Below are positions 871 to 42,100 of a DNA stretch of 64,000 nucleotides, in pieces. The notes under the pieces are model-generated. The model made no database searches. It was given only the letters and a program-made list of their open reading frames with translations, and had not been told where the DNA came from. The number at the start of each line of letters is the position of its first letter. Position 1 is the stretch's first letter. The DNA lies in the NCBI GenBank assembly GCA_030704615.1, contig CM060732.1, positions 31,620,001 through 31,684,000 of the forward strand, given 5' to 3'. The translations under genes and the position numbers were made by a program. This DNA comes from Takakia lepidozioides. Its lineage: Eukaryota; Plantae; Bryophyta.

Positions 871-1004
871 CTGCAGCGCACAAGAGCATTTGAGGCGACG
901 AGCATGTCTCGCGTCTGATGGCAACTTTGCCGATATGTAGTGCAGCCAACAAATCATCAAACGTGTAATGTACCCCCTGACGAGAAGCAACGATACTTAC
1001 TCAG

Positions 1005-2181
1005 CTAATGCAACTCCTTAAAGTCATTCTTGTCATCTGCTGGAATCGGTTGATTTCTCCAAAAGACCGCAAGAGCACTTCCTCCCAGCGCCATGAACAC
1101 CACTGACTGCTGTTGCTGAAGTGCTTTTGTGACAACAGGAACCCCAGTGATGCAGAGCTCTGCATCCCACACTCAATGGAAATAATTTGCGATGTGGACT
1201 CCCCGAAGCTAGAAAGTTTAGAAAACAAGTATCCCAGCATGAAACCAGCAAAATGTAGCAGAGCTACGGGTATGACAAGCTGTGCGCCTTGTGCCACCAG
1301 CACCTCTGACACTTACCCAATAGGGCTAGCACAAAGCAATGTAGTCATGATAACTCCAATCAAAGGTGTAACGGTGATAACCTTTTCTGTAAACTTTGGA
1401 ATGTACTCATGTGCAAGTACTCCAACAACGGTGGGCATGAGAACAACTTGGAAAGTGCTAATGGCCAGCCCTATTGCATCAACAGTTTAGTGAGCAGGGG
1501 TGTCATGATGATGGCACCAATCGTTGAGGCTGTGGTCATGAGGACTGATAGGGCTACATTGCCCTTGGAAATGTAGGTTGCCACATTGGAAGCCTGGCTT
1601 CCAGGACAACATGAGACTAGAATGAGACCTGTTGCCAGGGGGGCTGACAGCTTTAGTGTCAGCGCAATCAGAAACCCAAGAACTGGCTTGATGAGATACT
1701 GTGCTAAAAATCGAACGCCCACAGTCCAGGGGTTGTGTAAGCAGCGTCGGAAGTCCTCGAAGGTGAGAGTGAGGCCCATGGAGAGCATGAGAAAACCCAA
1801 GGTAAGTGTGAACAAATCCGTCTGCAACCATGTCACCGCAGACGGCTTGTAACTTCCAATGACGGTGCCCAAAATCACCCACATAAGAAACACAGTCGTG
1901 AGCAAATCGACCACTTTTTCGAAGGCGCTTAGTGATTTGCCGTCACTGGGAGCACCACTTGACACATCTCCCACTGCATTCGCCTCCGCTCAGCACATCA
2001 CCTTCTTAGTGGTAGAATGGACCACCACATCTGATCCCAGTGGTAGAGCCTACCCACTCCACAAAGAAGAGGCCGAAGAGGCCCACCAGCCTCCAGCTTC
2101 GATAAAGGTCTCATCTATAGACCTAAAGGCAAGCTCATGGCCTGCATCCTGGCAAGCAGGTAATAGATGCCCAACAGCAAT
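1005..2181 (-). pseudogene. BASS2: Processed (intronless) pseudogene of plastid bile acid:sodium symporter family pyruvate transporter BASS2
   Basis: ORFs 1471-1974 and 1001-1312 give [50 protein letters not shown] and [14 protein letters not shown]; a shifted frame ends [29 protein letters not shown]. There are no introns, a frameshifting deletion at ~1483 (LAGQLVP lost), an in-frame stop (PIG*VSEV), a further deletion at ~1110, and stops in the transit-peptide region. Confidence 0.9.
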
Positions 2182-2184
2182 GTA

Positions 2185-3800
2185 AGAAACTGCTGGGATC
2201 TTTCCACTCTCCACAGCTGCACCCACAGTTGCATTAATTTGGACTCACTTCCACATCCTCAAGTGCTGTCACACCCAAAGGCGACAATCGCCGAACAAAA
2301 GGAAGCAGAGGATATTATCAACCAGTAGTTAAAGATCTTTCTCGGGTTTCTTCTTATTTCCATCAGCCAGACCCACACGACCAAATGCTCCAAAATGCAG
2401 CCCAATGTGGTGCCCCCAGTAAAGCATCCGCCAACATAAGACATACTCTACTGTGCTTCCCCCTTCATACGCCTAAATCTCCTGAATGCTTGCTTGCTGG
2501 ACCCAACATTGCACCAATCTCCCCACTTCCTCTCTACTTCCTCTCCAGGGTTTTCCCTTTTTCTTGATGAATCCCCAGAATGGTAAAAGCTGCGGCTGCG
2601 CGATGCCTTTCTCTCATATGGCCGATCTCCAAGCAAGTAGTGCAAAAGAATGCAACCTTCACTGGCTTACTCCAGGTCAGGTGGGCACTTTCAAACAGTC
2701 AGCTATGAACTGTCAACAGTCTTGGGGGGGAAACCATCATCTCTTCGAAGCTTTTTCTGGAGGAAACAAGAGGATGACGAAGACAAATGCACGAATGATA
2801 TAGGTTAACTGCAATGAAGAGATGAAGGAGCTCAATATTCTCAGGGCTCCAACCAGTGTATGCCAATGTTGCGCAGTGAATAGGTACTTCATATGGTCCT
2901 GAACACTGGGGACCTGAAATTCACCATATCTAGGCTCAGATCAAACCTGCAATAGACACAGCAGAGAAATAATGCATCCTAGAGGGCGGTATGGCCTCAC
3001 ACCTGATTGATTCCCACAGGCAACAGTGGAGGTTTTGCTCTTAGATTCACGAGTTTGTCAACAGCCAGGTCATCAGGAAATGCTGAAGGACTGGTAGCCT
3101 AGCCATTTGTTGCCCCACTCATAGGGCAGGAAGTGACGCTGTCGGTCTCAACCATTATGCTGCCTGTGGCATACAAGGGCTCCTCATACCAGGTCAGGAG
3201 GGTAACTGGCTGTCAGGCAAAAGAGGAGAGTCTCAACTCACCAGTTTGCTTTGTCACCCCACTACACTGGTCATCAGTCGAGCTTCTTATAAAACCAGTG
3301 AAAGCAGCACCTGCATGGTCAACCTTCCAAAGCACCATCTTGTCTACAGATGCAGGCTGCTGAAGATTGGGTGGCCAAGATACAAGGTGACCGCTAAGCA
3401 CTGCCCATGTGAAGTGGAAAATAGGGGACAGAGCATGCCTTGCACACATGCTCAGAGAACTTACAATGATAAACAACGCTACTGAGTAAGGATCACAAAG
3501 CACCAAATTGTTCTGAATGGAAAATCCACATCTCCAGGAAACACACACTCCTGCCTGACAAACAAGCCAGGAGTATAATGTAAGCCAACAAACCAACCCC
3601 CAAAAGGGGGCAGTACCTGCAACGGAAAGAGGCTCTTCTTTAGCTGACTTTGGTCGGCATCATCTCTCTAAGTCAACACAAAAACACAAATCCATCACTA
3701 AAAAATCTGCTGCCAACCAAACCAAACTCCTCATTTTTTGGATCTCCAACCAGGGTACCAGCCCTGTCACATTGGGATCTGAAAATCCTAGCCCAAAGTG
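2185..3800 (-). mobile_element. Degenerate LINE-like ORF2 remnant
   Basis: Fragmented frames include CWRMLYWGHHIG...GLADGN near 2360-2435, which resembles the zf-RVT C-terminal region of plant L1 ORF2; many stops and frameshifts. Confidence 0.35.
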
Positions 3801-5032
3801 GGACATCTTAAAGAACTGGGCTAAAATCCAGCTCGCTAAATAAGGATTCCTTTAATCAGGGGCGACAGGTGTTTTAGCACGGGCAGCAGCACGTCGTTCT
3901 TGTGCACTTTGTGGGGAGGCATGACGTAGGGATCCAAGGGCTCATTAGCAAATGGATGGTTGTCATCTGCGAATATGCGCAACTTCCTCGCTTGATCCTG
4001 TTAATACATCACACAATAAAAATTATGCCCCACAAATAGAAACTTAGAATGATGGAACCTGAATTTTATGTATCTGGAGAAACATGCACTATCTAAGTAG
4101 ATGCAACCCAACAATAGCAGCCTGACTATGTTGTTGAAACTATTGATTGTAAGTCACAGAAAAATTCACCAACAAGACATGTTAGATGTCCTGCAAACTG
4201 AGGAACCATGTAGGTTCTTGAGATGATCATACCTGCAAAAAAATGTTTGGATAGCCAACACTCATCAGCTTCAACACTACCCTCCGAAGTTTTCACATAT
4301 TTTCTCTACAATGACTAGTTCCTGGGAAGACATGGTCCTAAAGGGAGTAGGTGCTGACATCCCGAAGCTTGTTATCAGGGAGCATGCGTAGAACAGCCTT
4401 GCGAATGACTTCTGTAGGATCCTTTCGCAGTTGTTCCTTCACAGTCTCTCCTTCAGATGGCCTATATAACTGCACATGAGTCATCAAGCCACCATTTCCA
4501 GTTACCCCAACTTTTACCCTGTAAGGCAATCCTGTACAGCCCACTTCCACCACTGAGCCCCCAAGGTAAAGATTCTCGAACAAGGGTCCAACCATAAGTT
4601 TCCAACAAGAACCAATGCCATTAGCAGTGCCTTATCTTTTTTGTCTTGCCCTGATCAAAGACATAGGTGGGAGTCACTCTTTTAGCCTGGTTGAACAAGG
4701 GTGTAAACCTTGGCAATTCAGTAAATGCACTGCAAAACAGACACTGAGTACAACATGCATTTTATAAACATAGGGACTGGGAGAAAAGGTGCTAGCTTAT
4801 GCAGTAAGATCTCATTGATGTACAATTCCATCCCTTTCCCCTTGCAGCTCATGAGCACAATAGGCTCGAAAAGATTGAAAGAGGGCATGACCTTACCCTA
4901 TGTGCCAGTGGTACAGCTTGTTGGTGAGCTTTTCCCAGTAAGACCTATTTCTTTTGCATTCAATACAATGCAGATGTCACCATCATCAGGATAGGGAGCA
5001 TATGTCGGCAAAAGCCACGCAATACGTTGAGG

Positions 5033-8000
5033 CACAGTTCCGCAATGAACTGTGAACTACTTAGCGGAAGGAGGAATAATAGCATGTGACATTTAGGTAC
5101 TTACTCACCCAAAAAGGGAATATCCGCGATTTCAACGTCCTTCTCTGAGCCGGACGAGTCCTCCTCCACAACCATTGTAGGGGCCTGCAGGCTGCTGGAA
5201 GCGTGCATGTCAACATGCAATGCCCTCAACTTGCTCTCCATCAGGTCGTTGTCATTGGAGAAGGCCATCAAATGCCGGCCGCACACAGTGGCTGCGATCA
5301 TGGAATTGCCCATAGAGGCAGTGAGATCTACTACTCGTCCACCCACGTTGGTACAAGCCTCCAACAGGGTTTGGAAGAAGGCAGGCGACTTCTCCATTGC
5401 ACCCCTGTAAGCGACGTTACCGTTCATTGACAAATGCCCTCGGTCAGTGTTGTTGAACAAGACGTCAGCTTGGACTGGGTCGTTCTCCGGGTCAACGAGT
5501 TTGGCCGCCTCCTCGAGCTTGAACTTTGAGTCCCGCTTCACAATGCAGTAGGTGAAAAACACACGAGTCTGAGGTGGGATGCACATACCAAAACAACGCT
5601 GTCAGCATGCAACTGGGCAGTTCCGTGCGGAATTACAGTTCTGGTCTACCGCGCAGCCAAAGGTGGAGATAACAAGGGTGGGCACAGACAGAAGTGGAAG
5701 CACATTAAAAGCAATTCAATCTTGCCGCAGTTCCGGGCGGAACTGCGGTCTCTGCGACTGACAGGGATACCAGTGGTCCACTTGACTTGCACGTAGTTCC
5801 GCACGAAACTTTGAAGCCCTGCCCGCAGTGTACACTGCCAAGGTAACGCAACCATGTGCATCATAAATCACAAGTTAACTGCACACAGTTCGGCACTGAG
5901 GCAATATGTGCTTTGTGACAAACAATGTTGGGAGCACGGGACAGAGTTCGGTGGACAGCGAGTATACCTGACTTGCTGCAGAGGAGACGAGATGCAGAGT
6001 GTTTATGCATGTCCACCTCTTCAGGATGCAGTTGAATGGCTGCCCTCCCTTGGCTAATGTCTGTTTCACCTCGTGATCCGTCTGCCCATCCCCCTTCGTA
6101 ATAAGTATGACGCATCCGTCATCATGCACAACCGTTCCTGCAAATGCCAGGGCATAAATGATGTCCTTTGGGGTCCTCTCGTTCCAGTCTGGGACCACGT
6201 AATCCATACCAGTTTCAAGGACATGAACACCATGCGGGATATCAGCTATGACGACGTCGGCATAGCCTCCCAAGGGGGATTTGCGGCCCCCAAAATCTGC
6301 AAAGACCGGAGATGGTGTTACTGACTTCAGCCAGGCATCAACATTCTGCTTGGAAACGGGCCATGGCACTGGAACTCCATCTATCAACGCCTTGTAATCT
6401 CCATAGACGCAAGTGACAGACGTCTTTCCAGGCATTTTGACTCCCAGCGGCCTTGCAGCAAATGGTTTCCCACACAACTTGCGCTTGCTCCCTGAAAGCT
6501 GCAGCCCCGCCAGATGCGCAGAAGTAAGAGGGCCTGTACCCCACTCTCTCTCCCCTTCCGAAGAGGCGTCTTGCATAGACGGGTCTGCTGTGGGTGTTCG
6601 ACTGCCAGGGCTGCCTTCTATAGTGGCTTTCATAGCCTTCGCCAATTGCTTGCGAGTTCGCTGGGGTTTATTAGCCTCCCTCTGAAGCTGATCAGCTTCA
6701 TCTGCTGCTCTCGCCGCTTGTGCAGCGGGCAGATGTTCCCGTACGAGAGCCAGTCTCTGAGCAGTCTGTGCCCGCGTTTCCTTGTCGTGTGCAATCTTCG
6801 CTGAGTTTGCGCTAGTAAACTCCGCGTGTTCCTTCTTCTCTTCCACTGGTACGATGCCGGGTTTACAATCTAGCCACCACGGGCAGTTTGGATGGCAAAA
6901 CTGGCTGAAGGACTTCAGTTGCTTTGGGTTGTACGCCGTTACCTCTGTTACCTCACTCACCCAAGGCAGCATTATGTTTGGTGTGGAGAGGATCAAATTC
7001 TTCTCCTGCCGTAAGTACCTTTGCACATATCTGCACAGCCCAAATGCAACGCATAAGCAAACTGAAAGACTGTACGCTGCGGAGTACCGTGCGTCTCTGC
7101 CTCTAATTCACATGTATGCTTAAGCAACAAATGCAGGGAAGATCAATTCCGAGCCGAAATATCTGTTTCTGCCTCTGCCAATAGCTTGTGTGGTTACAAA
7201 ATTACTTCAAAGCTTCCACCTGCAGTACCAGGCAAGGCCAGTTCCGTGCCGAATTAAGTCACCAGAAGTGCATGTGATTTCAATGGAAGTTGGAACTGCG
7301 ACAAACAGAGTCGAATCTGCAAGGACATGTGCACATTATACCGGAAGCACATTCTCTTGGAAGGTTGCAACTTGCCAGGCTGCTCGCTTATCTCCACACT
7401 CTTGCGCATTTTCTCTTGCTCCTCGGTGTGGAAGAGAACATGCCAATACTTGAGCTTCCAAAATTCGATGTATTCGGCTATGCTCTGGGCTGCCGTCTCA
7501 AAACCATTCAACTTCAGTTGGTCCAGCTGCCGTTCTGCCTCCCGAATATTCTGCCCACATTTTCCCATAGTGAGAAGCACAGTACAGAAACACCACCACA
7601 CTCAACGACTTAACCAGAAGCCTCCGCCCAGCCTAATCAGTCCTATGTGATAACCATCCAACAGTGCTGGGCTTATACCTGGAACCACCAGGTGGCCTTG
7701 TTGCAATACGCTGCTATTTCCACGTCTGTTGGGCGGATGGGAAAGTGCTCGCTTCTGCGATATGGCTCGTCCGAATTCCAGATATGGAGCCACCTCACCT
7801 TCTCCTCTGCTGGAACACTGCTGGATGCAATAGTCTGGAGCTTGTCAACGCCCATCTCGGGCTTCTGTCCAGGCCGGAGGGAATTGTGATGTGTCATCAC
7901 CTCAAACAGATAGCCATCCGTGAGTGCGGGATCACAAATGACTGAGAATTTCGCAAACCTGCTTGTCAGCAATCGTTTGTGCGCTGCAGTGGCTTCTTCT

Positions 8001-8479
8001 ACTCGGGCTTGCAAGTCTGTGGTGTTCTGCTCCTCGGGAGCCACTTCTTCGCCGTATGCCGCAATGGCCTCATCTCGCGTGCGCCGCAAAGCTTCAGCGC
8101 CGATATATTCCACGGCAGCTTCCCTCGTCAAAGACATCCAGTTTGGCCTCTTGTGTACACACTTTTCGTAAAGTGCAGGAGAAAGGGCACTTTGAAAGTG
8201 CTCCAGCGGTGTCAACTGCGTCCGTTTGTAGAAATACAGTTGCTGGTCCAGATTTGTCCCCACTCTACCTTTCTGTGTCACCCTGCACACCGAGTAAAAC
8301 TGTTTGGATTAGGTGGAGGATTAGCATGATGTCCTGCAGTTCTGCACGGAATTGCGCACTGCCTCAGTAGAACACATCCCAGCACAATGGAAGAAGGGGA
8401 AACTTCTTGGATAGGCATTGAAGCGCCCCCTGACATCCGCATTGGAACACTTACCTTACGCAGTTCCGTCCGGAATTGC
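5033..8479. repeat. Dispersed 20-bp palindrome GCARTTCCG-NN-CGGAAYTGC, at least 8 copies, all in non-coding parts of the ParB-MTase insert
   Basis: 5033-5054 cacagttc-cgcaat-gaactgtg; 5617-5636 gcagttc-cgtgcg-gaattac; 5725-5748 ccgcagttc-cgggcg-gaactgcgg; 5793-5810 gtagttc-cgcacg-aaact; 7144-7161 caattc-cgagcc-gaaata; 7239-7256 cagttc-cgtgcc-gaatta; 8336-8355 gcagttc-tgcacg-gaattgc; 8460-8479 gcagttc-cgtccg-gaattgc. Confidence 0.85.
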
Positions 8480-9154
8480 AAATTCCCGATTCTGAACAGG
8501 GAGATTGCAAAAAAAAACAGGGCTGTTGGTGATCGCAGCATTCTACAGGCTAGAGTTCAGAACTTACTCGTTCATCCTCTGCATGGCTTGCCTAACGAGC
8601 CCCATATCTGTCAGCTTCACGTCCATGAGAAACGACCGAGCACGGACATGCCAGTCGATGTCATTCTTGTGTGATTTGTTGATGACTTCATTCCAAGCAT
8701 AATGTCTGTGGTTGCCATCATAGATGAACAAGAACTTGCCCTTGAGCCAATGCCATTTGGGGTCCCGCTCTAACTCAGCTTCAAATTCCGCATTCACAGT
8801 CTTCCATGCTGAGTCCCACGAAGCTAAGTCTGTCTCAGTTACATCCATCTCATGGCCTTCGTCATTCATAGTCGCAAGGAGAAACCCTGCCAGAGTGGGA
8901 TTGTACCCATCCACCTCAAAGAAAGTGCGAAGGTGAGCTATTCCGCGCTTTTCAGGCATCCTAACGGCAGGCAATGGCTTCATGCGGCACAAAGGAACGA
9001 ATGGAGGCTCTGACTTGTACAGGAGGTGCCTGAAAGGGGAGAAGGGGTGGTTCTGTGCGGACTCCTCTAGTGCCCTCTCCGCCTCATCCTTCATGCTCTC
9101 TGTCAACGGAATATCACTCGGCGATTTCTTCTCTGCCTCCCACCTCCTCATCAT
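5101..9154 (-). CDS. Five-exon gene for a ~976-aa fusion of a ParB/Srx-like domain, a putative HTH and a beta-class N6-adenine/N4-cytosine DNA methyltransferase
   Basis: Exons 9154-8568, 8282-7679, 7550-7342, 7030-5968 and 5568-5101 are joined by four phase-compatible GT-AG introns into 2931 nt with no internal stop. ParB signature FIYDGNHRHYAW (GxxRxxA) follows PLCRMKP..VR..LRTFFEVDGY. MTase motif IV ADVVIADIPHG precedes YRGAMEKSPAFFQTLLEACTNVGGRVVDLTASMGNSMIAATVCGRHLMAF (motif X/I), the beta order. The frame is open upstream to the insertion junction, so the true N-terminus may be truncated. Confidence 0.8.
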
Positions 9155-10224
9155 GGACGGCCGATACAAGGGATTGCCAGTGGAGGAAGCACCAAACTGC
9201 ACCAAGGTAGACGGCCCAACAACTCTAGCCAAAGGAGTCGTCTCCCCCTCCTTGATCCGCTCCTCCTCCTTGATCTGCTGCTTGCCATGCGCGGAAGGAG
9301 ACCCACACTATTGATAGCCGTGATGCCAGCTTCCCCAACACCTGCTCACCCCAACTTCATCAGCGGGCATGAGCACTTTTTACATCAGCTTTCAAAATGT
9401 GCACCAGGGGGCACTGGCAACAACTTGACATCTACCCTGCTGCTTGCTCCTGCCCTCAAAATGACCCAGAACGCATCTGCCACAGCAAGAACCGTTCTCT
9501 CTCTTCCTGTCTGCGTTCTAACCTCATGTTTCCTAATAACGTCAATGTCAATGCACGAAGCTGGATCGTCGGTGGTGTGCACTGGTTGATTCTCAGGAAC
9601 CATGGTGGACTGAAGTTTCCCAGAAGGGTACCGCGCACTCATGGATAGGTCATTATAAACGTATACAGGGAACCTCTCTCTCTCTCCCGGCACTTTGGAA
9701 TTGTAAATAACAGTTATGAGACATCATGAGATCAAAATAGTGAGAATGTATAGCAGTAGGAGAGACTGAATGAATCCAATGATTGCACTAGTCTATCGGA
9801 ACTCAAAAGTATCCAGCTACCCGAAGACTGTCCGGGTTCAAAAAACGATAGTCCAATAGCATACCTGTCCCTTTGCATCAAAGACTCGCCAGCGAGGACC
9901 TTGCATGACTGCGGGACGTAAGCCACCTGAAGCATTCTGCACACAAACAACAAGGCTGCAAGGGCTTCAAGGGTGCAATTCACCTCAAAGTGATTCCAAT
10001 GCAAACAAAACAAAATTTGAAACACTACTTCTCGGAATACACCGATGTCCCGAGTGGAGGGGGCAAATTTTTTTTAATCTTCCGCTTGCATCCCCAACCA
10101 GAACAACGAGAAGCAACATAACTCTCAGCTCCACTAGTGTGACTGTATACTGAACAAACACATATTTAGAAATGTCTCAACTTCATTAGTGTGATTGATT
10201 ACGACGTACCTTAAATCTGGACAT

Positions 10225-10591
10225 GGCAGGTCTGGAGGTCTTCGATCTGTGAAAGGTTTATCAAGGGCTTGGAGAAGGAGAAGACGACGAGAAGGGACCC
10301 AATTAGTGCACGTCGGAACGCTGATCCATGTCGTCGGATGTTGGGGGTTGTTTGAATTACTGTAGAATTCGAGGAGCAACAGATGCAGAAATTGGAGAAA
10401 GAGAAGGAGACCCACACGCAGAATCACGTAGCACGTGCCCGATTCTTTGCAGAGGCGAATAAAGACAAGGCTGAGCTCAGGCCTGGAGCCCTAGAGTTTC
10501 ATCCCCGTGTCATCCACTGTCGTCTCGCAGCTTGAGCCCTAAACCCTCAAGAGATCCAACAGTGTGTGCGTGTGCGTGCAGAGAAGCAGTG
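10225..10591. promoter_or_regulatory. Short bidirectional promoter region shared by uL13m (-) and KLHDC4 (+)
   Basis: Divergent ATGs at 10224 and 10592; telo-box-like AAACCCT at ~10541 and G-box CACGTG at ~10432. Confidence 0.55.
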
Positions 10592-13500
10592 ATGGGGAAG
10601 AAGCAAAAGAAGCCCGGCAAGGGCAAGGAGAAGACAGAGCGCAAGACTGCCAAGTCCGCGGAGAAGCGCGCCAGGCGTGATGATAAGAATGTTTCCGAGG
10701 AGGACGACATTGATGCCATTCTGGTGCTCCTCTTGGACCCCTGCTTGTGGTTTCTGGCTATTGTTTTCTACGCTAGGCTGGAAGAATTTTAGTTAATTCA
10801 GAGGACGAGACTTTGCAGCGACAAGAGGAAAATGAGGACTGTTTGAAAGTCTACTGGTGGGTTTTGAAAGTAAGGATTTGAGCGAAAGTGCAAGCTTTGA
10901 GTGCCTTTACTCGTAGCCTCGTATTTGACCTCCCCGATGACACTGCAAATTACCTTACTTGTGGAGTTCGGATCCAGTACATAAAGAATTTGGCAGAAAA
11001 TATGGGATTGCTTCTATTCTGTAAATCAATGCAGCGTCCCCAAGGTTCAGAAATGAAGTCAGAAATGCAGATGCAGTTGAGCTATTTGGTTGATCTATGT
11101 CAAGCGAATTGTGTAGATAAAATTAACGTCATTCAATGAGTTGCGATTTTCAGGCCAAAATCCAGAAAGAGGAATTGAAAAAAGTGGCTGTTCAAGTTGA
11201 TGATAATGTGCCGACTCCATCACCCCGATGCAATTGCTCTGTAATATTTCTGACTCTTGACTTGGATGCACATCCTCTGTGGTGTCTGTCACTCTCCTTT
11301 GAACCTTGTCTAGTCATGTTACCGAATGCAATGAGTGACTGGGATTCTATTTGCATGCTATGCTGACAATGGACTTGAAGAAGGGAAACAAGCACCCACA
11401 TGTTGGGACTCTATCAGCAATTAAAATCGTACCTCTGTCACTGTGACTTCCTTACAGGTGGCTAGTTAATTGAAGACATTATTCTGAAATGTTACTGTCA
11501 GCGAGTCAATGAAATGTTGTTGAGTAACAGTGGGGATTATGAGGAGTTCTGATTGATCCCTTTTCCCAATTCAGGTGACGATAAATCCTCTCAAGGAAAC
11601 CGAGCTGATCTTTTATGGGGGGGAATTTTACAACGGTGACAAGGTTAGCCATTGCTGCACTTTGAATCCATGAGGAGGTTGTAATGCTTTTGTCTGGGAA
11701 AGAAATTAGTCTTTTTGGCAGGAATAACGAATGACAAGTGGGTGACTGAGCAACAATAGTGGGCTTAATCGGCTACGTCAATGAGGATTGAAGGGCAAGA
11801 AATGGTGGCATACTAAAGGGTATACGGTTCAGACATATGTCTATGGTGATCTGCACAGATACAATGTTGAAAAGAGTGAGTGGAAGCTGGTGTCCAGTCC
11901 CAACAGCCCTCCCCCGCGCAGCGCCCATCAAGCTGTTGCTTGGAAGAATTACCTCTTTGTCTTTGGTAACTATTTTATGACTCTCACCTTGATGGTAGTG
12001 TTAAGGGCAACTATTTCGTTTCTGGCATATTCTGTTGGAGGACCTTTTCTGCACTGGAAATATAACCTGATTTTCTCCTGGGTTGGATGTTGTCCAATGC
12101 ATGCCTTTTTGCACATGCCTTCTTTACCATTGTCAAGCTCTTGGGACGATGCTCTCTCCTGCTACCAATATGTGGAAGCAGGTTATATGCTTACCACCAT
12201 TACATAGCAACTTTTTAGCTATCGCACCTTTCCTGCGATGTTTATGTTTGTTTGGTTTTGTTTTCCCATGTAATTACTATGTAGGTTTGTTGCAAATTCA
12301 GGTGGGGAGTTTACTTCACCAAATCAGGAGAAGTTCCACCACTATAAGGTGTTGAATGTGCTCCTCTTGCCTTTTCTGCATTTTAGCTCCTACTGTCTCC
12401 TTTTGCTACCCGGTTGCTGATTATGACTGATGTTTATAGTTAGCAATGACATAATGCCAATATTTGGTGGCTATCAAAGTGTTGGTATTAGGATAGATGT
12501 GAAGTCGAAAGATGCAAATTTTCTGGTCAAGAGCTGAGATGAGTGGTACCTATTGGTTTTGCTTCTGAGTCAAAGCAAGACTAATGCAACCAAACCACTT
12601 GGCAAAGGATCTGTGCCTGAATATAGTGGAATTTTTTGCTGCACTGGTGCAGGATCTGTGGAGATTTGACCTCAATACAAATGTATGGGAGCAGTTAAAT
12701 CTGAAGGGCGCTCCCAGTCCTCGGTCAGGTCACCGAATGGTAAATTCACAGCCACAGCTTCCTCAGTGCACAAGAGGCAGAGAAGCTGTAGTGTCCACAG
12801 GAGGCCCAGAGGCTTATGAGAGAAAATATCATTGTACTTGTGGACCATCTGTTGTTGAAAATTATGAAATTTAGCAGGCACTTGCAAAAGAACTGATGGG
12901 TTCCTGCTTTGGTACATGCTTACTTTATATCTTGTAGTTTCCAAAGAAAGAATATTGTCTTCGCCTTGTAGGGCTGCTCAAAAATAGGATTGTGGTCCAT
13001 GCAGATCCTGTACAAGCACAAGCTCATTCTATTTGGTGGCTTTTATGATACTCTTCGTGAAGTCAGGTGATCAGCCTTCTTGTACAGCAAACATCCTGTC
13101 GCTCTGGAGACCATATTATTATGGCGGTAGCTCTCTCTTAGCTGTTTGTGTCTCTCCATAAGGCCAACGAACATAAGTAGGGCTATCCTAGGCACCTGCC
13201 AATCTACTGGTAATAGAAGGACCGGTCATGCAGTCTAAATATGTCTGCAGAAACCTGGACTCAAGATTGAGACCTAAGAGGTAGTTCATTTTGGTTGGTT
13301 GGGGAAAAGATAAGTGTGACATTTAGTGGTAGGAGAATAGGCTAACTGCACCTCGCAAACACACTTTTAGCTCAATACAGCATTGCTGATCATACTGGAT
13401 ATTTGCCTGTGCACTTAAGAGAGGAACAAATGGAGAACTTTACACTTCAAGCATCTGTCTCTTTAGGGAGCACAGACGAATCAATGAAATACAGGACAGG

Positions 13501-17878: not shown

Positions 17879-20129
17879 CGAGCCTCTGTTACATGTGTCC
17901 TTCGCACTCCTATTTTGGGCACATCAAGGCCTAATCATGAATCTTTGGTAGGGAGTGGGGGAATGCTTCCCTTGTTAGTGACATGCAGTGCGAATCAACC
18001 TCAGCCACAGGTAACCGGGTCAGAATTATCCATAGTTAGTGGTCAGTGGGTGGCCCAAATCATCTTAATCCTGGTGAGTGAATGAGCACGAATGTGACCT
18101 AATTACAGCGCTTACTATCAGCCTAAGCAGGTTAGTTTGGGGTCTGGCATGATTGTGCAGTTTAGGTTTCCTTACATCCACAGAACTGTTTCAGTAACAT
18201 GCACTACTAGACTGTCATCAAGCCTTCTCAATTCCAATGTTTGTTAGTTTCCAGCTCCAGTACAGAAAGTTTTGGCATACATTTTGGGAGGACTCTGAGA
18301 GAGACGGGGTTGGGCAGTTTGTCCATGAATTTTGAGACATGGTCCATTGGAAGTTTGCTCTTGTCCAGTTCGGGCGTGACATGAAATGCTGATATATTGG
18401 AGCTTCATCTCTGCTTGGAAGTTCTGGAATCATGGCCACTTTCATTTGTAAAACTGCAAACATATCCATTGTGTGATTGGCAGTCTGCTCTTTGAATTTC
18501 CTGTAAAGAAAAGTTTTCACCATGGGTCTATCCTGTCTATCCAGCCCATTCAGGCCGCAGCAGGGAAAATGAAGTAAAGCAACAACTATGAAGAGCTACT
18601 TCGGAGAAAAGGAAGTAGGACTACATCACTTCACAGCATCTGGCCCTCAAATTACTTTTCTCCTGCATATTTTGCGAAAAACAGATTCAGGCAAGCTCTT
18701 TAGAGAGTGTGCTACACGGCGCATCCTCTTATAGATATGTGAATTCACGCATGACCGCCCTCACTAACAAGACACAAAAACCCATTCTGACTAGTGCAAA
18801 CCAGAGAGGACCTTGGGCCTCAACAACAAACACACTTTGATAGCTGCTGATTTTGCCACAAGTGTTGGATGAAGTTGCTACTTAGAAGGATTATTTGAAA
18901 CAAAGGGCACTTTTGAGGTATCTCTTTCCCTCCACACATCTTCTCCTAGTTCCTAACCTCATTTTTCCTGCTTCCTCTGTATTGCAGGGCCACACATTCA
19001 TTCATTCATTCATGCACTCGGGAGAGTATTGGAATCCCACACAAACAACGACGACGAAACTTGAAAGACAAGGAAAGGTACTTACGAGTAATAAGTGGGT
19101 ATAATACGCGCAGGTACTCTGGCAGACCACGCGTAGCACGAGAAATGCCTGGTGAAATAATTATCCCATAACGTTTGCACCAACGAGGCGCTGGAAGTTA
19201 CTATAAAGGGGCATGGGCCTGCCTTGCACATCACGGTCTACTACCCGCCCCCTTCGAATCTCGATTCTCGATATTCGCCGGCGCCAGTAGACCCTAATTA
19301 TAACCCAACATGGCAGTCCAAACTCTCGGGGTCCTGTCAGAGGTTCGAACCCTGGTCGGCCGCCGACTGGCGTTGTGGTCGGAGCGTGTCCGCACCGTCA
19401 GACGGGCCCCAGCACCTGACCGGGCCTCGCGGTCACCTGGGGTGACCGGATATAGCAGTTACTCGGCGAACGGGTGGATCACCCCCTGACCTGACACCCT
19501 AATAATCGCATTACCCTACAAGGAATTGTTTAGGGCGAGCGTTAGGGCGCGCAAGTCAACCGCGTGTAATGTGCGCGGCTGCTATCCGTTGGTACGGTGG
19601 CGCGATATTTGGTGGCATCGATGCTTTGCTCGTTGCTGCTCCCAATTATTATTACGACTGTGGCTCGGGGAATCCTGGGCGGGCTGTTGAACGGTCCTGT
19701 CAGTCCAAAAGCCCGGGCCCCCTCCCGTTCCCCCACATCAACTCTCCCGCAATCCATCATAAATTCCACGGGTTTATGGCTCTTATAAATATTGCCGACT
19801 TATCCCATGTGGATGAGCACTCTCTATTTGGCACGTGTGGATAACTCCTTTCTTTAGAGCGGTGTACTACATCTTAACAATTATTTTAATAAGGACTTCA
19901 TTTTAAAATTGAAAACATTTGTTTACCTTTTTACCTTTTTTATTTAAAAGAAGGGGACAATCACTGCTATCGGTGTGTGTGCCTTCTGGTGTATGGGGGT
20001 TTTAATTGTTTTTCCCACAATAATTCTAATAAACGTTCACCGAAAAAATAAAATTTAATAAAGTTAAGCTCAGGGCCACTGTCCCCTGTTTGAAAAAAAA
20101 AAAGGGGGGGATAAAAAACTCGGAATTGC

Positions 20130-28671: not shown

Positions 28672-31600
28672 TTCTCCTGGGAGGCCAAGCCTCGGAGACC
28701 AACCCGAGCGGCTTCCCGAACGATGATGCAACGAGCTAACAAAGGCTTATCAGCCTCCCAATTCCAGACGCCAACTTTCAAGAGTCGATGTAAGAAGCCA
28801 ACCCCAATCCTGAACAAACGAATTTCAAAGATATCCCCAAGCACGCTCCTCCTGGCAGCAACTCCACAAGCTTCCTACTCCCCCACTCCAACCAGAACTG
28901 TCTTGCCTCCAATTGAGACTCGGTCAGCAAGCAGCCCCCAACGCGGTTAACTCCGGAACTTGTGGTGCGGCAACCAGTCTGTGAAAACCAAAGATATCTG
29001 CATCGGTACACCTTCCGCCCCCCGTCCCTTCCCCTTCCGTATTATCACACTCTCAGCCAAAACTGCAACACAATTGGACTAATAACTGTCTGTAGATCCC
29101 TTCCCCCCCCTCTCCAACGACAGCAGCATCCACCGTAATGCAACCTCAGATCACACGCAAACGCAGTTCCGAAAACCTCTCAATCCGTCCCCGAAGGAAG
29201 AGCAAGTTGCGAGGGCGGCCAATACAACGGAAGTACACGCAGGGCTGGCCTCGCTTTGCTTGCTTGGAACGCAAAGCAGAGCAAGAGACGACGATCGAGG
29301 AAGGAAGGAAGAAGAGAGGGAGGGCAGGCAGGCAGGGAGGGGGCAAGCCCAGGCTGCAGCCTCGGCCCCACCACCGGTCTTTCCTCTCCCCCCAACCAAC
29401 CGTACTCGTAACTCGTAACTTTCCGCTCCTCGATTTACCTACCTATAATCGCTTTCTGCTTTTTAACGTTTCCTAATTATATATATATAGATATTATTAT
29501 TACTTTTCTTACAGAGCAGTCTGGACAACCAGCATGTAGCCCAGTGGTAAAGGGCACATACCACGTTGGATGTGGCATGAAGGTGTCCACCTTTCAGCTG
29601 GAAGGCACTAGGGAGATTGTAGCAGCCCTGATAAATTTTATTAGAAATTATTGTGGGGAAAAAATTAAAACCCCGGTTTAGTTTTTGAAGTTTTATTTTA
29701 TACAGAACAGGGGACAGAGGCCCTGATACCTTTATTTATTTATTTATTTATTTATTTAACAACAGGGACGGTGGCCCTGGAAACTTTATTACTTGATTAT
29801 TGAAAAACAAAAAAAAGGTATTGAAAGGTATTTATTTAAAGTTTTAAATATCGTCTATTCTGATGTATTTAATACGATCTTTTATTATAAGTATCCGCCT
29901 GCTTTTTTTGTTCTTTGTTTTTTTGCCGTCCCGCTGCGGCATGGATGGATGACAATTGCTGACCTGTAGTTTTGGATGGATGAAATAGTGGGTGGTGTTT
30001 GGATAGATTTTTTTCAACCTGGTGAAGAGGACAAATGATAAGGATAGTTATTGACGGACATGGGAAGGTGGGTCGATGTATTATTACCTATTATTATTTA
30101 AAAGTAATAAAAATACTTAAATTTTTGAGGCCATGTTGCCGACAGGACAAGCGTCTATGATGTTCAAGTTCCCACATCATATCGGAGCGTTATGACAATA
30201 CATCGCACGTGTCGGTGCCGCAACACTCATCTGCAAATCATATCATCATATTTCAGGGTCCAAATTTTACTCATCCATTGAGCAAGTCGTTATAGCTTCC
30301 GTTCGAGTTGTCAATAACCGGCCTCCCACCCCTTTTGGGGGGTGGGGTGGAGAGTGACATTGCGAAGGGGTCCACACTAAAACAAGTTGTCGTTGTTGTC
30401 GCTTCACCACCACCACAATTGAAACAAAGTCCCATCCCCTCGTGAATATAATAAATAAACGTAAAGCAAACTATAGTGCTTGCTTTACGCTCCGCACAAT
30501 GGTAATGTACCCGGCATTGTACCACAAAGCACAAAGTTTGGTTAGTTAGAGCACAATAAAAGGATGCAGCCCGAGATGCTACCGTCTTTTTTTTTCTTAA
30601 GCTACCGTCTTGCAAATGACTGGCATAAATAAACAGCTCCGGCTGCGCCCAGAATGGTAGGAAAAGAAAACATCCACAAAAGCCTGATATTATAAAGGGC
30701 TAATAATATACACTAAATGGGTGGGGCTATTTATCCCATAACACTTGTGGAACAAGCAGGCAAAGGGGCAGGCTAAAAGGAGGTCACATCCCCCCCTGCT
30801 GTATTCACTTATTACTAATTACCTGGGCCCCTCTGTTCCTCATATAAAATTTGTGACTCTGGCACGCAAAGCTCGGTCGTCCGCATGAATATTTTCAAGA
30901 CACCGGCGGGCACGGGAGACCCATCTTTTGTGTATTCCGCTCCGATTCCCACATCGTTGTCACTGACGGAGTGAGATATTTGTGCCATCCCCACCCCCTC
31001 CTTCCAGGACCAGGCTTGACCCTAAATTCCGAATCTGCACCGAACCTGAGCCGAACCTGGGAGGATTGGCGGGAGGCGTCCATTGGCGCCGGAGTTGGCG
31101 TAAGTTGGAAGGCGGGCAGCCGGTACGGGCAGCTTCGTGGAAACTTCGCGCACGTACACTCTTACGCTGCCCGCGGAGCGATCTCGTGACCACTGTCGAC
31201 ATCCACATCCGTGTCTAATGGATGAATGAATAACATCCATCCAGCTCGACTCCACATTGAGACCGTTAAGTTCAGATTTTTAAACCAACTCAGTTTTTTT
31301 GCAATAATAATATTTCACTCTCAGAGTCATTGACTGTAGTAAAACTTACCCACCGATCTTTTTCTCCCTCGCTCAAAATATTTGTTTCGCCACATATTTG
31401 TGACGTGGCGATTGGATGGACCCACAGCCCACGTTGAAGGCCTTCCCTTCCATGCATGCAGATCAACAGAACCCGACAAAACAAGCCCAAGTATTTGCAT
31501 CAGTAAATGGATCCAAACCAAACCCTATTCATCCATCATCGGTCATCGTCTGTACATCCATTGACGGCAATGCAGTGTAGCAGATGAACGTTGAGAATGT

Positions 31601-32147
31601 GGGTGGATGAGGATGACGTGGATGAAGGGTGCGGATGAGCAAGGGGGTTGGTGAGACAGGGACAGGGAGAGGTCAAAGCGAGACGCAGAGAGGGGTCATC
31701 CCTAATTATCATCACACTTGAATTCCAAACGTTGCACTGCGGTACTTGTCCAGAGTACCTTTTTATTAATTTGTTTATTTTGGGTGTTTTACAAAAGAAA
31801 AGGACGCAGTCCGGAGTGTAATCATTCCCCTAACTCGAGTTAATTCGAGTACACCTGATTTTAAAATTGCACGGCTTTCGTATTCATCCGTTCACTCGAC
31901 TCTTCATCTCCCGTGCATAGTTATCATCTACCACATCCATCCATCTACCGTGCATAGAAACATCTAGACCGTTAGATCTTTTTGTCCCATCGACGGCTGA
32001 AAACAGAGAAATTTGGATCGGCATGGATCAGATGAACGGAACCCACTTTTCTAATTATGGAAAGTTCATTTAATGTAGTCGCTATTTTAAGCCCAAAAGC
32101 AGATCAGAAGCCCCAAAATGAATCCAACCAGTTTTTTGGAAAATTGG

Positions 32148-34420
32148 AAAATAGCAGGAGTGGCTACTGAGTTTTGCAGGCAATATCTATATATTCTGTT
32201 CATCCATTAAAATTTGGATAAAATCATCATCCTCTCTATTTCATCCATCTATATCCTCCATTTTTGGCAAATTCATCCATACATATATTTTTGGTTTGGA
32301 GAAGTTTGGCGATTTCATCCATTAAAAAACAAGGAATTCTCGAATGAATATTCCATCTTATTTTCTGAGGTCGAAATTTGGCGATTATTCCCCACTAAAT
32401 GAATTTAGTGAGATCATAATTCGGTTTCGTGGTTGATTACTGAGTGCGTAATTAGGGTTAGAAGAGTCAAGGCGACTAAAACGGAGAAAGGATTTGATCG
32501 CGCTCGGTACACCGCTGATTTTATAATATCACATGTCCGCACAGCGACGGTACACAGCAATTATCATTGTGGCAGCGTCCTTCTCACGGGATATCATCTC
32601 GCGGCTTTGAACCCGTGACTCCTCCCACACTTTTGTACTGAACCAGACGGGGACGAATGTCATCCAACGTCACGCACCTCATCCATCGTACACGAACTGC
32701 GCGGCGCGCCGGGCCCGCCACAAAACCCGCGTGTACGCGGCTCTCGCGCTACCGCGCGGTCCCAACCGCGCGGTGTAGGTAGTAAGTTACTAGGCACTAA
32801 CCGGTTTGCGGGGTAAGTAGTAAGTAGTAAGTCGGTGCGGGGTGAGTTAGTGAGGTGATGCGACCATGATGAGGCCCGTTCCGTGGCTGTAACCGGCGTC
32901 CAGGGGCGGCTCCGACATGATGGCGATGGCCCTGGCGTGGGGGCCATGCCATGCCCATCATGACTCCATCGCCCTGCGCCATCCGTCACTTCAATCGCCG
33001 GTGGAATTTGCGAGTAATGAGTCGTGGCGAGACGGAGGGTACGAAGGGTCTGGCAAAATATCGGGGTTGCGATCGGATTTGTGTGTCTGCCAAAAGTGTG
33101 GCGAGGCGAAGGAGGCGAGAGAAAGATTTGGCAATCAAAGAGGGATGCATTGAATGCGGCAGAGGCAGTCAGAAGGCAGGGCAGGGTGAATGAACGAACA
33201 GCGAATGAATGAATGTCGAAGCTCTGACAACGAGGCAACGACGAAAAGCGATCCCACATTCACGCATTTGACTAGGTTCGGACACGCACCCTCCAACATC
33301 AATGCGGATAAAAGGTCGCAGAACGGAAGCTTCTTGTCTCTGCACACTGACTGCATGCACCAGTGATGTTTTTTTAAATTTGAAAAATAGCACTAGTGGC
33401 TACTAAGTCTTACAGGAAATAGCTATACTGTTCATCCATTGAAAATTTGGATAGAATCCTCCTCCTATGTACTTTCATCCATTTATATCATCCACATTTG
33501 GCGAATTCATCCATTATTATTTTTTATTTGTAGAAGTTTGGCGCAGCGTCCGGGAAATAATTTCAGTTGAACCAGCCAATGGCCCCTCATTCTGAGAACC
33601 AACCGGCTAAGTGGGTTGGGGAGTCGGTTGCTTCCCCTTAATGGTAACTGCGATAGTCAATTTCCTATGTGAACATACTCGGTAAATTTCCGAAGGTTTC
33701 AATTTTCACTCGGAAATCCTCAGAATCAGTCGGCTAGCATGTAACTAGCTGCCGGTTCTCCCCGTTGGTTGGTTTGGCGATTTCATCCATGAAAAAATAA
33801 GGTCTCTGCACACTGCACACCAGTGATTTTTTTTTAAATTTGAAAAAAAGCACTAGTGGCTATAGCTATACTGTTCATCCATTGAAAATTTGGATAGACT
33901 CATCCTCCGAAGTACTTTCATGCATTTATATCATCCAAATTTGGCGAATTCGTCCATTATTATTTTTTCTTTGTAGAAGTTTGGCGATTTCATCCATGGA
34001 AAAATTCGGAATTTATGACAGAATATTCCATTTTAATGTTTTGAGGTCGCACGCCCCTGCACACTCCCTTTTCCATCCATCCATCCATCATCCATCTCTC
34101 CTCCATCATCACCCAGGACTGGTTACAGGAGTCAATTATGGAACAGAACAATAGCACTAGTGGCTATTAAGTTTTACAGGAAATAGCTATACTGTTCATC
34201 CATTGGAGAGAATCATCTTCCTATGTACTTTCATCCATTTGTATCGTCCATATTATTCTTTCTTTGTACAAGTTTCATGCATAAAAAAATGGGGAATTTA
34301 CGACAGAATATTCCATTTTAATGTCTTGAGGTCGCACACCCCCTTTTCTATCCATCCATCCATCATCCAATCGCTCCTGCATCATCACCCAGAACTGGTT
34401 ACGGGAGTCAATTATGGAGG
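32148..34420 (+). repeat. Four diverged copies of a ~250-300 bp CATCCA-rich repeat unit
   Basis: Unit atagca..agtggcta..ctgttcatccatt.aaaatttggata..atcctc..ttcatccat..tttggc.aattc.tcca..agaagtttggcgatttcatcca starts at ~32148, ~33386, ~33846 and ~34150. Confidence 0.85.
33544..33771. mobile_element. 228-bp non-autonomous hAT-like element with an 8-bp target-site duplication
   Basis: GTTTGGCG at 33536-33543 and 33772-33779; sibling repeat copies read agaagtttggcgatttcatcc without the insert; starts CAGCG; internal AACCGG/CCGGTT motifs; TIRs degenerate. Confidence 0.7.
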
Positions 34421-39100: not shown

Positions 39101-42100
39101 CATCTGGCGTGAAGCGAATTGCACTCTCTTCCAGTGCCATCTGAGAACACAGTAACCTGCAGATGTCAGATGCACTGTGCTAAGATCTAGGACAGCTTCC
39201 CGGTCAGTATGCAAAGAACAGTCCTCCATCCCATGTTGATAAACCTGGCAGCAACTACATCTTGATTTCAGATACTTTGCAGCTAGAAGCTTAGGCTATG
39301 GAAAAATTGGTCCGATATGACGAATGATCTCAGTAATGCTGACAGCCTTTACAGTCGATAGCCCTGGTGTCCTTTGGGTGCAACTGGTGTGACAGTCAGA
39401 TTGACCTCAGGAAAACAACCAGCAGCGACAAATACCTCAGCATCAGCAGCACTGCAGCCATCATGATGGAGCTCTGCCTTGACACAACCCAGCAATGAAG
39501 CTTCTGCCTTTGTGACTTCCACCTCCACCTTGTGCACAAAGAGAAGTCTCTCACGTTGCTCAATAAGCCCACAACAGACACATAAGTAGATATTTGTACC
39601 CTGGACGTTGAGTACCATGGCAAGAACAGGGTCAGGATGTTGGATGCATGCCACAGGCTCAAGTGTGTTCAACTCCCCCAAACCTTCGACCATGGATGGC
39701 AATCCTTCATAATCAAGAATATCTGAAAAACAAAGCATTCAGTCATTCTTTTGACTTGTTACGAGGTTGGCAACACCTACAAGCTGTGTACAAATAGCTG
39801 TGTCATTATAGCTGCATTGAAGAGCAGGGTCATGTGGTTACTGAGGTCATTGGAAAGCCTTTGTACAAGTAACTAAAACTCCCTTTGGTACTTTCATTTT
39901 GGCACGTTAACAAGCATACCTTCTTCTCCTGAAGATCTTTCCACGTACATGCCTTTGAGTCTTTCATGGTCCAATACTGTGTGATTAGCTGCAATCATGG
40001 CACTCTCCCCAGCTTCATCACAGACCGCCTGGATTTGCATCAGCTGTTGCACCTCATCTACCACATCTTCCATAACCCTCTCCACCTCTCCATTGCTCCC
40101 AAAGTGTTTTGCTTGCCTAGAAAAGCACCTGCTGGATAGGCCATCCTCGTCTTTCTCGGCTCCCTGAGAATCAGAGTCCAAAATAACTAACTGTCCTCCC
40201 TCCTCTGCGGGAAATTCCCTAACCCCACTGACTTCTGCGGCGAAGTCTCCGGGGAAATCTCTGTCTGTTTCTTCCACCCTCTCTTGCTTTCTTTCATGGG
40301 CGTAAGAGATTCCTTCGTCATCTTCATCTTCCTTTTCTTCGTGCATACAGTAACTTCTTGTCTCCTCACTCCTTTCTCTGTCCCTCCCCAGCCCAGTGTG
40401 TGCTGATTGGGAAATTGGGAGAGCATATCCTTCTTGTGATCCCTCTATGGGAGAACTCCTACTGCTTTGACAGAAGATTATTGGGGAGCCATTTTGATTG
40501 GGCTCGGGCGAGTTGACATCTTGCACAGTGGTGGGCTGCTGCTGTCTGTCGGATTCTTCCAGAAAGGTATCTACGCCTTGAATGCATCCAAACAGATCAC
40601 GTCTCAGTGACTAAAATTCCATTCTTCATACCTAATCTGCTTTCTCACGCCAGTGTTCTCAAGTGTAATGATTTCAGGATTTCCAGGCACTGCACCTTAT
40701 GTCTGGCATGGGAATAGCCCTTCTGAGTTCAGATAGTTGTGCTGAAATTGAATCCCAGCTCCCAGTTTTTGTCGGTAGGATGCTGCTAATAAGTACGAAT
40801 GTTCAATGCTTCAACTTAGAAAGTAAGATGTACTGATTTCTTGTTTCAGCCTTCACTTCCCCCATCATCTTTCGAAGTGTAGAAAGGAAAGGTATCATCA
40901 AATACTATGGCTGCCGCTATAGAGATTAAACCAGTAATTTCTAACAAAATATTTCACAATAAAAATCACTCGAGGCTCACCTGAAATACGAGGGCAGAGA
41001 GTCATTACAGGCTGGTGTGTTGCCTTCTGTGAGGTACTGTACTCTGCCACCCCTTCAAGACAAATCTGGCTTCGACTGGCATCGGCCGTTTGATGTTGCT
41101 CACGGCCATGAACAACACCTTTCGAACCCATTGATGGCAGAGAGCTGGGCAATTCATTTCCAGCATGAGGCGATACTTCTCCACTGTAGCAGATCTGAAC
41201 TGCAGCAGGTTGAGAGGTATCCAACTTATCTTCTGTGTATTCTGCAGTTCTCTCCCTCACTTGAGTGTGCAAATTTTGGTCCACAATCACAGAATCACTT
41301 GGCAGTTTCATCAACTGCAGATGATGTGACTCTACTTGCAGAGGATGATGGTCTTTATCTACTGCATACTCAACAGAAGTCAAATCTCCTTTTGTAGGGG
41401 AGCTGCACTTCACTCCATCATCCAACTGAAAATGCTTTCTCTTAGGTGAAGACGCATAACCGTGACCTTTGTAGTCTGTGGTTGCAAGTGAAGGATCCAT
41501 ATGACAGGCAGGTGTGTTCATAATTCCACAACTTTCCACCTCATTTGGTGCCTCCCTGAGAGGATTGTCGAAATGCAGACTCATCTCCATGTCTCCTGCA
41601 AGCTGGTCATCCTGAATAAGCCGATTATCTACTCTAGTATCGTGGACCAATGTGGGCACGCTCAGATTGCTGGCCAAGTCTCGCTTTCTTTTCTTCATCA
41701 AGTGAGTCTCGATCAGAGGCACTGCTTGGGGAAAAAATAGTTTCATCATTGACTTGGTCAGAACCTGGCCCATGGATTCTTCAGAGCCAAGACTTGCCTG
41801 ATGCATTTCTTCTGGCAATAATGGCTGCTGAGGGGAGAAAACTTCTGGGAAGTAAGGCTGTGGTTTTGCTGCTGGACATTCAGGTGTCAGACAAATGCGA
41901 GTGTCTTGTAGAGTAAATTCATCGTCCTCGACAGTGTCACTGTATAGATCCACCTCAGAGATAGGAGGCAGAACAGTGACTACACCAAATTCGTTCAGCC
42001 TTCCATATGTAAAATCTGTAATGAGGTCCCCATTGCCCTCATGCTCCTCTTTCACTCCTCCTGGAACCAACGTGAGTGGTTTGAGTGGTTTGTCGTCAGC

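Follow-up and report, generated by a model that had tools for sequence, protein, structure and literature searches.

The subject of this analysis is a minus-strand gene of five exons that lies within a 64,000-nucleotide stretch of the bryophyte Takakia lepidozioides (GenBank assembly GCA_030704615.1, contig CM060732.1, positions 31,620,001 to 31,684,000 of the forward strand; this whole stretch is here called the window, and coordinates are given within it) and is carried by an insert that disrupts a uL13 gene in one of its coding exons. On balance we favor, if with modest confidence, the interpretation that it is a stranded land-plant transposon accessory gene, the product of which is a predicted DNA-binding pseudo-methyltransferase that would recognize palindromes in its own introns. 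This interpretation draws on spliced contigs spanning the gene, on the conservation of a methyltransferase fold with degenerate catalytic motifs, and on palindromes concentrated in the introns.

Gene structure and transcripts

The gene is real, as probable transcripts splice into a single frame of 976 aa. Its exons are joined via four GT..AG introns (285, 128, 311 and 399 nt, with phases 2/0/2/0), and all four joints are present in the contigs of both X5 and X6, which derive from two studies, as against none of the four in the DNA runs X1 and X7 compared alongside. The labeling of X5 and X6 as RNA is a guess, no listed run carrying the locus being recorded as such; their contigs fit transcripts because canonical introns have been removed exactly. 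The five open reading frame (ORF) pieces and four phase-matched introns that an initial annotation of this DNA had joined into one gene of ~976 aa are thereby borne out, and the peptides quoted in it are all present in the translation. The parts of the gene are as follows (L001 to L009 are homologous loci described further below):

9154 (ATG)-8568, minus strand: exon 1, counted from the first ATG in frame; putative ParB/Srx-like domain, with DGNHR at 8719-8705
8282-7679, minus strand: exon 2, conserved middle region with a predicted DNA-binding role; splice joints and tblastn matches to L006, L007 and L009
7550-7342, minus strand: exon 3; splice joints and homolog matches
7030-5968, minus strand: exon 4, encoding a charged linker plus the N-terminal half of the methyltransferase fold, in which motif IV reads DIPH (6243-6232)
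5568-5109, minus strand: exon 5, encoding the C-terminal half of that fold, with RGAMEK at 5406-5389 and DLTASMG at 5328-5308
4462-4469, minus strand: final 8 coding bases and stop, in a uL13 exon read out of frame and reached through intron 5; joint 4469/5109 in X5 and X6

Exon 1 is supported by 27 homologs and a match in a language-model atlas, and the match of one paralog ends at 9190. A fifth intron (5108-4470), seen in both X5 and X6, exits the insert and splices into the next uL13 exon, such that the stop in these transcripts is the TAG at 4464-4462 and the TAA at 5103-5101 is intronic. Hence, the earlier description of the gene as intact holds in that it is spliced and unbroken, but its stop lies in the uL13 exon rather than at that TAA; the product is an unbroken 976 aa whichever of the two is used. 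An intron 4 acceptor at 5598 was discarded in favor of 5568 on the contig joints. Two separate genes are ruled out, for contigs of X5 and X6 link exons 1-4 and exons 4-5, and L009 displays the same architecture. Upstream of the start, a frame of 45 codons (9288-9151) begins with an out-of-frame ATG in good context and ends with a stop overlapping the main ATG.

A probable captured fragment within a uL13 gene

The limits of the insert are given by empty-site contigs from X1, X4 and X6: in these, 5008 and 9305 are bridged by 17 other bases, which restore the missing uL13 codons, and the insert can therefore be defined as 5009-9304 with a loss of 17 bp from the target. The empty-site contigs differ from the locus at several exon positions and are probably uL13 paralogs, an allele being the alternative. 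The initial annotation had described a plant insertion; the insert is real, though it has these limits and interrupts a uL13 coding exon. The relevant features are:

5009-9304 (4296 bp), minus strand: whole insert, within a uL13 coding exon and replacing 17 bp
9305-10226, minus strand: uL13 5' exons, from translation; joints 9339/9863 and 9937/10212; probable promoter side of the transcript
9294-9308, minus strand: left junction, 4 host and 11 insert bases identical to 10403-10417; putative templated filler
4358-5008, minus strand: uL13 3' exons; Pfam PF00572, E 9e-6; one base short in each (near 4929 and 4445) relative to an intact copy

An assembly chimera is ruled out, as DNA contigs of X1 bridge both junctions (X1 may be the source sample of the assembly) and contigs from two other studies link the insert to uL13. 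A repeat scan and inspection of the junctions found neither terminal repeats or terminal inverted repeats nor a target-site duplication, and a non-exhaustive Pfam search of 11 neighboring ORFs (8 of the 23 long ORFs and 3 others) found no transposase. Helitrons have the end motif TC..CTRR, which the ends of the insert do not match, and with neither terminal repeats nor a duplication a complete transposon or Helitron at this site is ruled out. The only match in the window to the left-junction 15-mer is at 10403-10417, upstream in the same uL13 gene. Deletion combined with filler templated by nearby DNA is, in the available text of PMC10923293, the footprint of polymerase-theta end-joining in plants, and it is likely that the insert is a fragment captured by templated end joining during break repair. 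The relatives L001 and L002 carry a further exon after the methyltransferase, a native last exon that the window copy lacks; because of this, the window copy was likely cut within intron 5, stranding a donor that uses the host acceptor. Thus the suggestion that the gene travels as cargo of a mobile element survives in that its family is mobile and of many copies, but not at this locus, where termini, target duplication, transposase and the native last exon are all missing. As further observations on the insert, a single X7 contig (depth 2.8) has ~91 extra bases at the left junction (9304/9305), representing either an older form of the junction or an artefact, and the observed/expected CpG ratio of 0.66 in the insert versus 0.27-0.54 in five host stretches is suggestive.

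Possible retention or a neutral passenger

The proposition that the uL13 promoter drives this copy and that selection has kept it intact falls just short of an even chance. The frame of the insert has no breaks in 2923 nt, as opposed to two frameshifts in 333 nt of the uL13 remnant (P ~0.01 for this contrast if both had decayed equally), and no near-identical donor was seen among the contigs, the other copies in the same genome being ~82-87% identical, with 1-2 nt indels in exon 5 in some of the matching contigs. Together, the difference in decay and the missing donor hint at retention by selection. Contig depth, a weak measure, is ~20-24 over the insert versus 28-30 in the flanks. The probable RNA contigs reach the left junction, fitting read-through from uL13. 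Three points weigh on the other side: a missense change (E840K) is present in one probable RNA run; decay of the uL13 copy may have preceded the insertion, in which case the argument from selection would fall; and contigs cannot give a transcript start.

The foremost competing explanation, which we hold to be possible but unlikely, grants the gene the same origin and treats it as a neutral passenger that was recently captured into a dead uL13 duplicate, is passively transcribed and has yet to decay. The loss of the native last exon, the presence of upstream ATGs before the start in a read-through transcript and the undatable decay of uL13 all speak for it; however, the missing donor and the functioning of every one of the five splice joints in both studies weigh against it.

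Palindromes in the introns

The introns of the gene contain a 16-bp palindrome, AGTTCCG-NN-CGGAACT, of which the entire window has 8 copies at ≤3 mismatches, every one of them within insert introns (introns 1, 3, 4 and 5, with none in intron 2 or in the exons):

8462-8477, no strand: intron 1, 1 mismatch, probably kept in a paralog
8338-8353, no strand: intron 1, 2 mismatches
7240-7255, no strand: intron 3, 2 mismatches
7145-7160, no strand: intron 3, 3 mismatches
5795-5810, no strand: intron 4, 1 mismatch
5729-5744, no strand: intron 4, perfect match; 11-bp arms if one mismatch is allowed
5619-5634, no strand: intron 4, 1 mismatch
5036-5051, no strand: truncated intron 5, 2 mismatches

Shuffled inserts are expected to hold 0.14 copies each (300 shuffles), and the best palindrome family of any sequence with 7-bp arms reached ≤5 copies in 60 shuffles. 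The paralog appears to keep the intron-1 palindrome while the rest of that intron has diverged, as judged from a joint at 8485/8617 with a short side of 27 nt. Separately, 42 nt of intron 4 that lie between two of the palindromes (5675-5716) are kept in a diverged paralog. Every palindrome site includes CCG/CGG bases, which are potential targets of host 5mC enzymes.

A related core, TC[CG]G-NN-C[CG]GA, occurs in 3 of the 9 homologous loci, where it lies in non-coding DNA (500 shuffles, P 0.004, for a pattern chosen post hoc). In L001 three long palindromes lie in 139-bp repeats behind the gene; L006 also has three, within repeats of 85 bp that precede an exon; and L002 has one. These have TCGG-NN-CCGA in common, a half-site of which is also found in two of the window sites. 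On the opposite side of the ledger, 3 of 12 control tiles of the window gave palindrome families of 9-11 members, all with A/T-rich arms; the related core was not found in the remaining 6 of the 9 loci, which are short contigs; L003 carries a different repeated palindrome; and the palindromes of L005 are part of a fold-back repeat. That fold-back repeat (L005, 1361-1866) has a 61-bp near-perfect palindrome and lies behind the methyltransferase region of the homolog. Tandem repeats upstream of exons are seen at L003 1-341 (~65 bp), L006 1-265 (~85 bp) and L007 1-294 (~31 bp), and may be compared with the non-coding regions of VANDAL elements. A role as RNA hairpins was rejected, as the mismatches, read by eye, show no G-U bias on the transcribed strand, and positions 3000-11000 gave no Rfam match.

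The 16-bp length is also that of the bacterial parS palindromes, with the arm GTTCCAC in Pseudomonas in the available text of PMC5961200. Because the arms of the palindromes in the relatives are unlike parS, this resemblance is best taken as one of analogy and not of descent.

The N-terminal domain

The N-terminus is likely to be ParB-like. Members of the family have the DGNHR stretch in common, although several broken homologs read DENH in its place, and the atlas neighbors of exon 1 are unnamed clusters as well as DUF3723 (0.95, 31% of cluster members) and ParB_N (0.92, 11%). A series of direct comparisons detracts from this assignment. Neither exon 1 of the window gene nor any of 22 homologs matched ParB in Pfam, and a profile search of PDB sequences for ParB gave no match. 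A single-sequence model of exon 1 (pLDDT 39) matched nothing relevant in fold searches. Profile-profile comparison with 51 bacterial ParB_N domains reached P ~0.05, which is within the range of block shuffles, and the alignment was limited to the DGNHR stretch (17-31 columns), placing DGNHR on the GxRR/DGxxR columns. Deleting the insertion from the exon 1 alignment gave no better ParB match. The ParB helix-turn-helix (HTH) region claimed earlier for the middle of the protein found no backing in any test, no HTH family matching exon 2 in Pfam, PHROGs or PADLOC.

These results bear on a second alternative, which we rate as distinctly unlikely, namely that the palindromes are landing sites for a missing transposase or another element protein and that the gene has another role, such as RNA or protein binding, its N-terminus perhaps being nearer to DUF3723. 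Transposases and their partners bind subterminal repeats, the ParB searches gave no clear match, and DUF3723 stands ahead of ParB_N in the atlas. Conversely, the sites lie deep in the introns of the gene itself and are parS-like in length and symmetry, and the ParB-like accessory genes in the available published accounts adjoin inverted repeats.

The C-terminal methyltransferase-like domain

The C-terminus of the family has a beta-class amino-methyltransferase fold. In the window protein motif IV (DIPH, residue 730) precedes motif I (DLTASMG, residue 902). The homolog P0001 is assigned to PF01555 at 0.94 in the language-model atlas, and its model, which is of low confidence (mean pLDDT 42), has as its top Foldseek matches CcrM (E 3e-7), M.BceJIV, M.RsrI and N4CMT. 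A 12-row family profile that includes the window protein matched five prokaryotic beta-class enzymes with P 1.5e-4 and a score of 37, against ≤22 in 30 shuffles, in an alignment that spans the motif I region only, and exon 5 matched the PADLOC profile MTase_II with E 0.016. None of the five exon-sized pieces matched N6_N4_Mtase or ParB in Pfam, the protein falling below all profile cut-offs; the ParBc and PF01555 matches that the initial annotation expected of the spliced protein were not seen for these pieces. Its C-terminal methyltransferase is nevertheless upheld as to fold and motif order, with the qualification that DIPH and DLTASMG are both degenerate.

Across the family the Asp and Pro of motif IV are nearly invariant, and the motif is mostly D-[ILV]-P-[D/E], with the catalytic aromatic (Y/F/W) in 0 of 19 rows, which include close relatives and are not independent, and with His only in the window copy. 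In the FxGxG of motif I the Phe is present in 0 of 9 and the first Gly in 4 of 9, the window copy being without both; the window copy further has a Ser after the next strand where L001 has an acidic residue. In the available text of PMC8885841, substitution of the S and Y in SPPY abolishes the activity of N4CMT. By its motifs, then, the protein stands outside the active amino-methyltransferases, and because none of the 19 family members keeps the catalytic aromatic, the writing of 6mA or 4mC on its own DNA, suggested earlier for this gene, is unlikely. The domain is shown to be under purifying selection in relatives: dN/dS between L001 and L002 is 0.14 over 192 codons, with a range of 0.14-0.19 in the domain versus 0.35 in the linker. 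We consider it quite probable that the methyltransferase fold serves as a non-catalytic DNA-binding or dimerizing module. METTL14 is a described conserved pseudo-enzyme (PMC4738411), and by analogy a conserved pseudo-enzyme of this sort would fit the C-terminal domain best.

A third alternative, which we judge improbable, is that the protein is a catalytically active but non-canonical enzyme writing 6mA or 4mC on its own DNA, with the His of DIPH replacing the aromatic. The beta-class fold, the near-invariant Asp and Pro of motif IV, the purifying selection on the domain in relatives, the retention of the first Gly of motif I in 4 of 9 and the use of such enzymes by plants (MpDN4MT1, as far as the available text goes) could be cited in its support. 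Against it stand the predominance of Asp/Glu at position 4 in the family, with His confined to the window copy, the lack in that copy of both the motif I Phe and the first Gly, and the Ser that replaces the acidic residue of L001.

Family and origin

A search with exon 4 recovered 9 unnamed proteins (E 3e-10 to 3e-4), and an alignment of four exon 4 homologs recovered 9 metagenome loci, all <3.8 kb. One of these, L009, matches residues 52-827 of the spliced protein in five blocks; it has the whole architecture, with donors at the positions of introns 1 and 2. A search with exon 1 and L009 recovered 27 homologs among 58 candidates, many of them truncated or degenerate, and further copies of the gene are found in the same genome, with small exon indels in some of the matching contigs. 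Longer homologs were not found, which is weak evidence, and a search of PDB sequences gave no match. In the sets searched no relatives were found in viral or prokaryote contigs; the best phage match had E 2, and 401 genomes of one bacterial phylum gave only 2 weak matches (E 0.01-0.03). Judged by these homologs, this is a divergent, many-copy eukaryotic family and not a recent bacterial transfer. The horizontal acquisition proposed earlier can stand only in an older form: because intron positions are common to a ~30%-identical relative and the sets searched yielded neither a prokaryotic nor a viral homolog, any transfer from prokaryote to eukaryote would be ancient. The transposon origin is weakened in that no transposase was reached beside the homologous gene in any of the 9 short loci. 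An origin of the family in a large DNA virus that became endogenous, or its being an ordinary family of host genes, is nonetheless very improbable, as this lack of a transposase and the frequency with which phage-like loci carry ParB-methyltransferase fusions (a methyltransferase motif is seen in several ParB_N ORFs) are set against the lack of relatives in viral contigs or phages, the conserved spliceosomal introns and the many broken, closely related copies.

Proposed function

The accessory-gene interpretation suggests a mechanism, for which, on analogy with known systems, we see about equal chances of being right or wrong: a dimer of the protein would bind the two-fold palindromes, coat the parent element in the manner of ParB/parS and act like the VANC anti-silencing proteins. 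Such coating might keep the parent element active against host 5mC silencing or organize it for transposition. The fragment in the window would then have been captured without its transposon at a break in uL13, with the donor of intron 5 adopting a host acceptor, and the orphan copy would be read through from uL13 and still spliced. A bolder version is improbable; in it the copy would be a domesticated ParB/parS-type system driven by the uL13 promoter, in which a nucleotide-gated clamp loads at the intronic palindromes and spreads, and the dead methyltransferase shields CG/CCG from host methylation.

The unbroken spliced gene and its precise candidate site make self-recognition, and possibly a CTP-gated clamp in a eukaryote, directly testable. 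If selection does keep the orphan copy, it would be a case of domestication of a transposon gene through capture inside a housekeeping gene.

Other features of the window

The genes and intron sizes of the window suggest a non-seed land plant. Elsewhere in the window, the following were observed:

1000-2000, minus strand: long uninterrupted stretches of bile-acid symporter (SBF) sequence showing apparent breaks; perhaps a processed copy
3603-3642: 40-bp stretch at which many X1, X6 and X7 contigs have loose ends, probably a small dispersed repeat
19996-20103 and 29637-29779: inverted copies of a short repeat ~9.6 kb apart, around a gene with a YTH domain
32133-34418: at least 4 diverged copies (75-85% alike) of an A/T-rich repeat of ~200 bp
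40898-43819, minus strand: open frame of 973 codons with no Pfam match

Comparison with known systems

For the systems compared here, statements drawn from published accounts refer to the available parts of those texts. The fungal Starship elements offer a lead only: DUF3723, a Starship auxiliary gene whose function is not known, is the top named atlas neighbor of exon 1 and likewise belongs to a mobile element, but exon 1 does not match Pfam PF12520 and no recombinase is nearby. The likeness to bacterial ParB-parS lies in the multi-copy 16-bp palindromes, in the arm GTTCCG as compared with GTTCCAC in Pseudomonas, and in a possible Box II-like motif; the difference is that there is no ParA, GNHR replaces GxRR, and ~40 extra residues lie within the putative domain. 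With the PF01555 enzymes (CcrM, M.BceJIV, M.RsrI, bdelloid N4CMT and Marchantia DN4MT1) the window protein shares fold and motif order, but it is without (D/N/S)PP(Y/F/W) and FxGxG; the plant and rotifer enzymes MpDN4MT1 and N4CMT carry SPPY where it has DIPH.

The best functional analogy is VANC of the Arabidopsis VANDAL elements, an accessory protein encoded by the element that binds family-specific motifs located in its element's introns and tandem repeats (PMC5735166). However, VANC is an unrelated, MAIN-like protein (PMC13547354), its motifs are non-palindromic, and its action is demonstrated, whereas here it is only predicted.

In composition the closest parallels come from algae. In red-algal Plavaka (EnSpm) elements, a ParB-like PAG3 (E 0.29) lies beside inverted-repeat arrays, and PAG2 has PF01555 (bioRxiv 10.1101/2025.02.11.637652). 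The weakly supported ParB-like N-terminus, the inverted repeats adjoining the gene and the presence of PF01555 in the same cassette recall the situation described here. PAG3, though, has a 2OG oxygenase as its fusion partner, and the methylase is encoded by a gene of its own that also has a SET domain, while the window gene has the ParB-like and methylase-like parts in one chain and its sites dispersed in introns. In Sola1-1_Ec32 of Ectocarpus, a protein of 1104 aa combines ParB-like and N4C/N6A methyltransferase parts and has been proposed to bind its own element and modify it (PMC12477816). It has the same two-domain description, a similar size (1104 versus 976 aa), a eukaryotic host and evidence of transcription, the likeness being one of description. 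The setting differs: there the gene lies in a complete 21.5-kb element, opposite the transposase, and here it belongs to a stranded piece within a host gene of a land plant. The published account predicts methylation, with no mention in the available text of motif loss or palindromes.

No paper was found on the land-plant family, the loss of catalysis or the intronic sites, though the supplements of PMC4738411 and bioRxiv 10.1101/2025.02.11.637652 may list plant homologs. In conclusion, what is known is the class of ParB plus methyltransferase accessory genes of algal transposons, and the gene described here is probably a land-plant, catalytically eroded variant of it, possibly kept by the host. 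It would carry this class beyond the algae into land plants, and it suggests that the methylase half works without catalysis.

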